A stretch of DNA of 64,000 nucleotides from Candidatus Nomurabacteria bacterium. Its GTDB lineage: Bacteria; Patescibacteriota; Minisyncoccia; Phycocordibacterales; CALRBL01. Under the pieces are notes generated by a model. The model was not told where the DNA came from, ran no database searches, and saw nothing but the letters and a program-made list of their open reading frames with translations. Made by a program: the position numbers and the translations under genes. The stretch is from assembly GCA_963834935.1 (NCBI GenBank), contig CAWIDS010000001.1:65338-129337 (forward strand). Reading direction: 5' to 3'. Shown one piece after another: positions 39,751-41,827 of the stretch. Positions within the stretch are counted from its first letter, which is position 1. Every line of letters begins with the position of its first letter.

Positions 39751-41827
39751 CTAGACGTCAATATTTGCATTCTTCGCATTTGACTGGATGAAGGATTTTC
39801 GAGGAGCGACATCGCTTCCCATGAGGATGTCAATGACTTTGTCAGCTTCCTCGGCATCGTCGATGGTCACCTGGCGCAGCACGCGCTTTGAAGCATCCAT
39901 AGTGGTCTCGCTGAGCTCCTCAGCATTCATCTCTCCGAGTCCTTTGTAACGCTGAATGAGGATCTTTGGCTTTTTCTTTGCTACCTTTTCATCAGCTTCC
40001 CCTTCTGCTTCTGCTTCGGTATTTTCAGTATCGATATTTCCTTCTTCGACGATTACACTTCGGCATTCACGCTTTCTTCGCGATAAACTGTTCTTTTCTT
40101 CTTCGTCATAGAAATAGAAAAGTTCCTTTCCTTTTTTTATTTTATACAAAGGCGACTGAGCGATATAGATATATCCGCCATCGAGAAGCGGGCGGAAATA
40201 GCGGTAGAAGAGAGTAAGCAAAAGCGTCCTGATATGCGATGCCGTCAACATCGGCATCGGTCGCGATGATGATCTTGTGATAGCGGAGCTTGGAGATATC
40301 AAACGTGTCGCCGATAGCGGTGCCGAGGGCGATGACGAGGTTTCGATCTGCTCGGAGGCGAGCATCTTGTCGAGGCGTGCTCGCTCGATATTGAGGATTT
40401 TACCTCGAAGAGGAAGGATGGCTTGCGTCCGGCGGTCGCGTCCGGTCTTTGCTGTACCTCCGGCTGAATCTCCCTCCACAATGAAGAGCTCTGACTCGGC
40501 TGGCGTCTTTGGATTGGCAGTCAGCGAGCTTTCCCGGCAATGTCATGCCTTCAAGCGCGCCTTTGCGGAGGACGGAGTCCTTTGCGGCCTTTGCGGCCTT
40601 TCGGGCATTAAGCGCAAGGAGAACTTTGTTGACGATGGCACGGCATCTTCTGGATTTTCTTCGAGAAAAGCTGAGAAAGCCTCGCCGAAAACGGTGCTGT
40701 CGACGGCACTATGAGCCTCCGTCGAGCCGAGCTTGGCCTTTGTCTGGCCTTCAAACTGGATCTCACGGAGCTTTACCGACACGACTGCGGTGAGGCCTTC
40801 AAGCACGTCTTCGCCAGTAAAGTTGTCGTCGTTTTCTTTTGCATATTCGTTTTTCTTGGCATAGCTGTTGAGCGTGCGAGTGAGCGCGGTCTTGAAGCCA
40901 GTGACATGCGTTCCGCCTTCGGCGTTGGATGTATTGTTGGCGAAAGCGAGGATGCGTGGATTTATATCGTCGACATATTGCATAGCGATTTCGATCGATT
41001 CGACTCCTTCGCTTTTTTCTCGACATAAAAGATATTCTTGTGAATCGGCTTTTCAGTCTGATTGTAGAATTTAACCAAGCGACACAAGACCTCCCTCGAA
41101 ATAGAAGGTTTGAGATGGAACGTCGATGTTCAGCTCACGAAGATAAAAGACATTGTCGGCATCGATCTTACCTTCATATCCGCGCAAGTCAAGAACGGAA
41201 ATCTTCAAGCCTTTGACGAGATATGCTTGCTGGCGCATATGAGGCACGACGCGATTCCAATCAAAGGAAATCTCCTTGAAGATCTCAATGTCGGGCTCGA
41301 AAGTGACGATCGTCCCGTGCAGCTTGGTCTTTCCGACTTGCTTCACGGCTGCTTTCTTCTTTCCTTGTGAATATTCCTGAGTCCAGATTCCTCCGTCCTT
41401 ATGGACTATCACTTTGGTGATAAATCGAAAGAGCGTTCACGACTGATGCTCCCACTCCGTGAAGTCCGCCGGACACTTTGTATCCCTCGCCGCCGAATTT
41501 TCCTCCAGCGTGAAGAGTTGTCATGATCGTCTCGAGAGCGGAGACCTTTGTCGCCTTGTGCATATCGACGGGGATTCCTCGTCCGTTGTCAGCGACGCGG
41601 ATCCGGTTGCCGGGAAGTAGGGCTACCTCGATATCGTCAGCAAAGCCTCCCATGGCTTCATCGCGGGAGTTATCGAAAATTTCAGTGATGAGATGATGGA
41701 GACCGTCCGGGCCAGTGGTACCGATATACATTCCGGGGCGCTTTCTCACCGGCTCAAGGCCTTCGAGGACAGTAATGGATTCAGCCCCGTATGTAGCCGT
41801 TTTTTTCTTGGTTTTGTCGTCTGCCAT
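39751..41827 (-). pseudogene. gyrB: DNA gyrase/topo IV B-subunit homologue (GyrB/ParE) disrupted by six or more single-nucleotide frameshifts and two in-frame stops
   Basis: Four ORF fragments (142, 113, 146 and 242 aa) carry GHKL ATPase '[16 protein letters not shown]', transducer 'EGG', 'GGTHVTGF', and TOPRIM '[15 protein letters not shown]', 'HIRTLLLT', '[11 protein letters not shown]' motifs in the correct order. Hand translation of the gaps recovers 'KPIHKNIFYVEKK' and '[34 protein letters not shown]' in other frames. Confidence 0.75.

Follow-up and report, generated by a model that had tools for sequence, protein, structure and literature searches.

Clustered frameshifts in the gyrB of a Paceibacteria MAG very probably belong to the deposited consensus

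The gyrB locus and its neighborhood

We analyzed a 64-kb stretch of DNA, here called the window, which is part of a 432,723-bp contig. The minus strand of the window carries a gene for the B subunit of DNA gyrase (gyrB) that, as deposited, is split over several open reading frames (ORFs; Table 1). A first-pass annotation, made from the sequence alone, had described a GyrB-type gene broken by frameshifts at this position, and our analysis bears that description out: the deposited gene contains seven frame switches and 10 frame-shifting indels. A colinear GyrB of ~690 aa is recovered when the seven switches are made, as seen in three-frame translation, in tblastn with the closest homolog, and in frameshift-aware protein-to-DNA alignment. 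Among thousands of Patescibacteria/Paceibacteria GyrB proteins, the best match shares 84% identity with the entire length of the stitched protein. Because the best GyrB matches come from Patescibacteria/Paceibacteria, the host is taken to be a CPR bacterium (Paceibacteria, Patescibacteria). In a Pfam search PF02518, PF00204, and PF00986 were scored piecemeal on the window's fragments, and Toprim (PF01751) was scored in none of the four. The Toprim catalytic motifs and the QTK loop (EGQTKAKLG) are all found in the frame-corrected translation of the window.

Table 1. Features of the gyrB locus, with the single-base indels of the deposited sequence and the short-read contigs compared with it (positions are those of the window).
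Feature	Position	Strand	Description
gyrB as deposited	39751–41827	-	Readable solely by frame-hopping; translation would truncate after 142 aa; NCBIfam gyrase B models match fragments in consecutive order
Fragment 1, 142 aa	41399–41827	-	N-terminal GHKL ATPase (HATPase_c); 41433–41827 same as short-read contig
Fragment 2, 113 aa	41071–41412	-	End of ATPase domain; NF004189 profile positions 138–228
Fragment 3, 146 aa	40543–40983	-	Transducer domain (DNA_gyraseB, PF00204); final ~32 residues out of frame
Fragment 4, 242 aa	39751–40479	-	Toprim start, then out-of-frame stretch, then C-terminal domain (PF00986)
Anomalous tract	39912–41432		Holds all 176 differences from the short-read contigs (157 mismatches, 19 gap columns; 1,521 bases)
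Tract core	40048–41083		~85% identity to intact short-read allele; 8–24 mismatches/100 nt; most indels
+1 insertion	41421	-	TTC (intact) to TATC
+1 insertion	41080	-	TCC (intact) to TCGC
-1 deletion	41012	-	GTT (intact) to G-C; adjoins A6 run
-1 deletion	40643	-	GCG (intact) to GC-
+1 insertion	40497	-	CTT (intact) to CGAG
-1 deletion	40346	-	ATC CGA (intact) to AT-CGA
+1 insertion	40241	-	GGA (intact) to GGCA
Three 1-nt deletions in C-terminal insert	40091, 40077, 40048	-	Sum -3; frame restored, ~15 residues garbled
Short-read contig L082	37111–40680		Logan, ERR10755936
Short-read contig L083	40658–43948		Logan, ERR10755936
Short-read contig L086	27514–36590		Logan, ERR10755936; 100.000% identity over 9,077 bases

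The genes surrounding gyrB are core housekeeping genes and include topA, parB, trmD, RNase R, an SMC-type ATPase, clpB, IF-2, lepA, murJ, dnaE, thrS, secG, and RNase J. A search around gyrB for repeats, mobile-element signatures, and RNA families returned nothing relevant. The ~445 nt that separate gyrB from secG (41828–42272) have no Rfam hit and hold short ORFs only, one of 78 aa on the plus strand and, on the minus strand, a gene of 75 aa that was called in L083. This interval is identical in the short-read contig.

The first-pass annotation was also right that gyrA does not adjoin gyrB, and none is present within the 64-kb window. The missing partner could be taken as a sign that gyrB is a real pseudogene, i.e., a gyrB copy or paralogue in decay, with a functional type IIA topoisomerase B subunit encoded elsewhere or dispensable. 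However, gyrB without an adjacent gyrA is normal among relatives, as in three related loci, and the absence of gyrA therefore carries no weight.

Irregular gyrB sequences were encountered in other assemblies. A relative's gyrB with one frameshift lies at 3274–5362 of contig_65275 in ENA ERZ25039480 (L084, 733 kb, Flye-style). Positions 3465–5407 of PFCQ01000013.1 (L085), an Illumina assembly, contain a 34-N scaffold gap inside gyrB, and truncated GyrB proteins (P0137, P0153, P0167, P0175, P0227) are encoded on 30–130 kb contigs. To judge from these sequences, gyrB may be a recurrent assembly trouble spot in Paceibacteria-rich communities.

In the other ~62 kb of the window we found one clear frameshift, at the 3′ end of clpB. 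The first-pass annotation had reported that frameshifts were rare outside gyrB and had named clpB and one methyltransferase as the exceptions. The local excess in gyrB is real and the clpB case was recovered; the methyltransferase case was not substantiated, and TrmD (6880–7572) looks whole. The clpB gene (18811–21541, minus strand) has a 1-nt deletion near 19106–19116 that leaves a product of 811 aa, cut just before the C-terminal D2-small domain, and the tail (AEVLSFLSKEGYNPQYGARPLKR...) runs on in another frame. This is probably another consensus error, since the NCBI/ENA copy has the truncated product on record and Logan does not. No near-identical short-read copy of clpB was found, the best being 81%.

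Several other ORFs in the window are unusual. A 301-aa ORF on the minus strand (13964–14869) has a full NusB domain (7–136) together with a NUDIX hydrolase domain (189–283), which is an unusual fusion. Two ORFs on the plus strand (55450–56916 and 59814–60560) match only the C-terminal half of Methyltransf_11 (positions 47–93 and 44–95 of 95), and one of them may be the frameshifted methyltransferase of the first-pass annotation. A 400-aa ORF on the plus strand (5907–7109) has no family hit, lies antisense to parB (5814–6845) and trmD, and is almost certainly a spurious shadow ORF.

An intact gyrB in short-read contigs

Short-read contigs were retrieved from Logan by exact-protein look-up of the neighboring genes. 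Three contigs (L082, L083, and L086), all from run ERR10755936, align to the window (Table 1); this run may differ from the dataset behind the MAG. L082 and L083 are the same as the window over 37111–39911 and 41433–43948 (5,317 bases, no difference). Taking the three contigs together, 14,394 of 14,394 bases agree outside 39912–41432. The disagreement is thus sharply bounded, with 176 differences in the 1,521 bases of this tract vs. 0 in the 14,394 flanking bases.

A 28-nt overlap joins L082 and L083, and the merged contigs encode an uninterrupted GyrB of 691 aa. A continuous ORF of about 640–700 aa, as this is, is absent from the window's version of the gene, which has four ORFs in its place. 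The first-pass annotation had named, as evidence against its own reading, single-base corrections that restore one continuous ORF of ~690 aa. Such an ORF does in effect emerge from the merged short-read contigs, but it requires the replacement of a 1.5-kb allele and not only single-base fixes.

The 691-aa allele contains all four GyrB domains, i.e., the GHKL ATPase (PF02518), transducer (PF00204), Toprim (PF01751), and C-terminal (PF00986) domains. It scores 906.5 bits against NF004189 (cut-off 740) and 876.9 against NF011501 (cut-off 796); its score against TIGR01059 is 859.4, slightly below the cut-off of 882.4. Scores against two ParE models were 687 (cut-off 900) and 578 (cut-off 723). Since both ParE scores are far short of their cut-offs, the locus is, on its profile matches, an ordinary member of the GyrB family and not ParE.

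The two contigs that cover gyrB enter the intact allele from unique flanking genes, over 630 nt and at least 425 nt, and neither breaks at the borders of the tract. The intact allele is therefore the one linked to the flanks in ERR10755936. L082 does end, and L083 begin, at 40658–40680, within the anomalous tract, and this suggests that the short-read graph branches or loses coverage at gyrB. The 146-aa gyrB fragment, like the 811-aa truncated ClpB, has records from NCBI/ENA only, while the intact neighbor proteins are also found in Logan.

Frameshifts and substitutions in the anomalous tract

Indel positions were taken from a base-level alignment of the window to the intact short-read allele, which served as the reference. 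The 10 frame-shifting indels, four insertions and six deletions, are all of a single base and are interleaved over 1.4 kb. The first-pass annotation had placed frame switches at about 41405, 41076, 41025, 40500, 40320, and 40270. All six are real to within about 3–30 nt, but the switch at 40643 was missed and the deletions at 40091, 40077, and 40048 were overlooked, so the count of disruptions was too low. The stops reported with them, a TAA (41073–41071) and a TGA (41055–41053), are present; both lie in the frame in which most of the gene is read. One in-frame stop is left after frame correction, a TAA at 40055–40053. Two further small indel clusters in the tract are compensated in the alignment to the intact allele and, from their sequence, look like ordinary divergence.

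We considered whether the gene could be functional as written through recoding, either programmed ribosomal frameshifting or transcriptional slippage. Slippage at long poly(A) tracts rescues frameshifted genes in insect endosymbionts, and site 41012 adjoins an A6 run. Rescue would be needed at all 10 sites, however, and in both directions, while nine of the 10 lie outside slippery runs and known shift motifs. Stops occur in the out-of-frame stretches, and an intact allele exists at the locus. The probability of recoding is practically negligible. A model of homopolymer errors only was also rejected; the A6 run at 41012 is the only long run that adjoins a site, and most sites are left unexplained.

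The bases at the indel sites have a pattern of their own. At three insertions (TCGC, GGCA, and TATC) the base of the intact allele stands beside an alternative base, and several of the indel sites read as if the bases of both alleles had been written one after the other, or as if a variant base had been dropped. The wobble base is touched by seven of the 10 indels vs. a simulated mean of 3.9 with aligner bias, a borderline result (P about 0.05). This excess is a hint of allele blending and is suggestive only.

The substitutions in the tract are far from evenly spread over codons. Of the 157 mismatches, 26 fall on the first codon position, 11 on the second, and 120 on the third (chi-square p = 1e−29), and the codon changes comprise 102 synonymous and 34 non-synonymous, the latter mostly conservative. 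The frame-corrected tract keeps 189 of 191 conserved columns, defined as those at least 97% conserved among 120 homologs. When 157 random substitutions were simulated (2000 trials), the means were 108 amino-acid changes, 48 conserved-column hits (minimum 32), and 4.9 stops; the tract has 34, 2, and 1, respectively.

These figures bear on the reading that the tract is the same allele overlaid by nothing but local sequencing noise, e.g., at a low-coverage spot, and that no second allele is involved. A rate of about 0.7% for single-base indels is what raw or low-coverage long-read sequence typically shows, and some substitutions are odd (P557S, I299T, G639S, A236V, and E591 to stop). Noise would be expected to spread evenly over codon positions, in contrast to what is seen, and a divergence of 15% far exceeds consensus noise, yet the amino-acid sequence is typical of the family. 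We regard noise as the whole explanation as extremely unlikely.

The tract is 85% identical to the intact allele at the nucleotide level and at most 75% identical to any of 81 other loci; at the amino-acid level it is 89% identical to the intact allele. Both alleles are equidistant from all 81 of these outgroup loci. Apart from the short-read allele, a database of 5.8 billion sequences contained no protein closer than about 85% to the tract allele. We also asked whether the tract could combine, as a mosaic, the short-read allele with one of the 81 known loci, and found no parent; any single locus accounts for at most 51% of the differing sites. The substitution pattern argues that the tract is a second gyrB allele, one that evolved under purifying selection.

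The selected pattern means that decay in situ cannot explain the tract, and with it the case for a real pseudogene weakens. In the record itself, the 10 frame-disrupting indels and the one in-frame stop left after frame correction speak for decay, and our search for a second copy covered 64 kb of the contig. Ten neutral indels, however, should be accompanied by dozens of unselected substitutions, and there are none such; the purifying selection is strong, with two conserved-column hits vs. about 48 expected. Decay in place could not produce a tract that diverges by 15% while its flanks show no difference over 14.4 kb. Natural gene decay in bacteria is expected to bring larger deletions and not just 1-nt indels, and larger deletions are absent here. 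Short-read contigs of the same population, moreover, carry the locus in intact form. A dying gyrB is thus very unlikely, and the decaying paralogue offered by the first-pass annotation as one of two explanations is not supported, given overwhelmingly synonymous substitutions, spared conserved residues, and an intact gyrB at the same locus. The other explanation it offered, that the assembly over an essential gene is locally rich in errors or mixes strains, agrees with all the data, and both descriptions apply at once.

A second allele could also be a true part of the deposited genome. If the short-read contigs were chimeric, the divergent allele would be a recombinant tract truly linked to the flanks, and only the indels would be consensus errors. 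In favor of this reading, the tract acts like an independent sister of the short-read allele, as far from the outgroup loci as that allele is, and it is under selection. Its length of ~1.5 kb would fit that of bacterial recombination tracts, and the short-read contigs break within it. Both contigs nevertheless pass from unique flanks into the intact allele without a break at the border, and no other dataset showed the divergent allele. We consider this arrangement unlikely, and even under it gyrB would not be a pseudogene. A more radical version, in which a real sub-population carries a recombinant gyrB tract imported from a related species and truly inactivated by multiple frameshifts, is highly improbable. 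If it were true, this lineage would live either with no gyrase B of its own or with a substitute encoded at another locus.

Origin of the tract and comparison with known systems

The frameshifts very probably belong to the deposited consensus, with the host's gyrB at this locus intact and encoding 691 aa. Because short-read contigs of the same population hold an intact gyrB at the locus, what looks like damage is almost certainly a faulty 1.5-kb stretch of assembly rather than a dying gene. The living genome would carry a normal, functional gyrB in one piece here, with GHKL ATPase, transducer, Toprim, and C-terminal tail. Over 39912–41432, and above all in the core of the tract (40048–41083), the assembler would have written something other than the allele linked to the flanks in the short-read data. 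The consensus may have taken the path of a second, related gyrB allele of ~85% nucleotide identity or mixed that allele in, and the tract would have been left at an error rate of roughly 1%, with 10 indels of one base each and a few odd substitutions. As to the technical route, we infer that the likeliest are a long-read or hybrid assembly consensus that collapsed two haplotypes, or a low-coverage variant path that short reads differing by 15% could not polish. A long-read or hybrid origin would fit a contig of 432,723 bp. The divergent allele may belong to a minor recombinant strain that really exists, where it would be functional and from which it was recorded here with errors, or it may be a blend that is present in no cell. 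Under either view the frameshifts are non-biological.

The biological weight of the result is small, as gyrB here is an ordinary essential gene. The frameshifted gyrB is no feature of the biology; in practice it serves to flag the quality of the MAG at a marker gene. In the deposited MAG, a patch of 1.5 kb within a standard phylogenetic, single-copy marker is of low quality and carries the wrong allele. Taken at face value, this patch would give a false call of a "gyrase-deficient CPR" bacterium, lower the completeness estimate, and distort a gyrB phylogeny. Where frameshifts cluster in a conserved marker gene of a MAG, short-read contigs obtained independently from the same population offer a check, as this case shows.

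The locus can be compared with three known systems. It shares the four-domain architecture of DNA gyrase subunit B, a type IIA topoisomerase (NF004189, TIGR01059), in the intact allele; the window's version differs in that it lacks a continuous ORF. It resembles the pseudogenes of reductive genomes in having many frameshifts in one gene while the neighbors are intact. Unlike those pseudogenes, the tract has no relaxed selection, has 1-nt indels only, is sharply bounded, and has an intact copy at the same locus in the same population.

The frameshifted gyrB matches known consensus artifacts. Long-read consensus retains residual indels that fragment gene calls (PMC9262707), and collapsed alleles with nearby variants lead to indel errors and apparent frameshifts (PMC8445201). 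The likeness to collapsed-haplotype artifacts is drawn here from assembled sequences. The alleles in this case are ~15% apart, far above the usual strain variation, and this divergence is confined to 1–1.5 kb of one gene. Otherwise the correspondence is close: single-base indels cluster at allelic differences, the flanks are free of damage, and reading one allele alone brings back the ORF.
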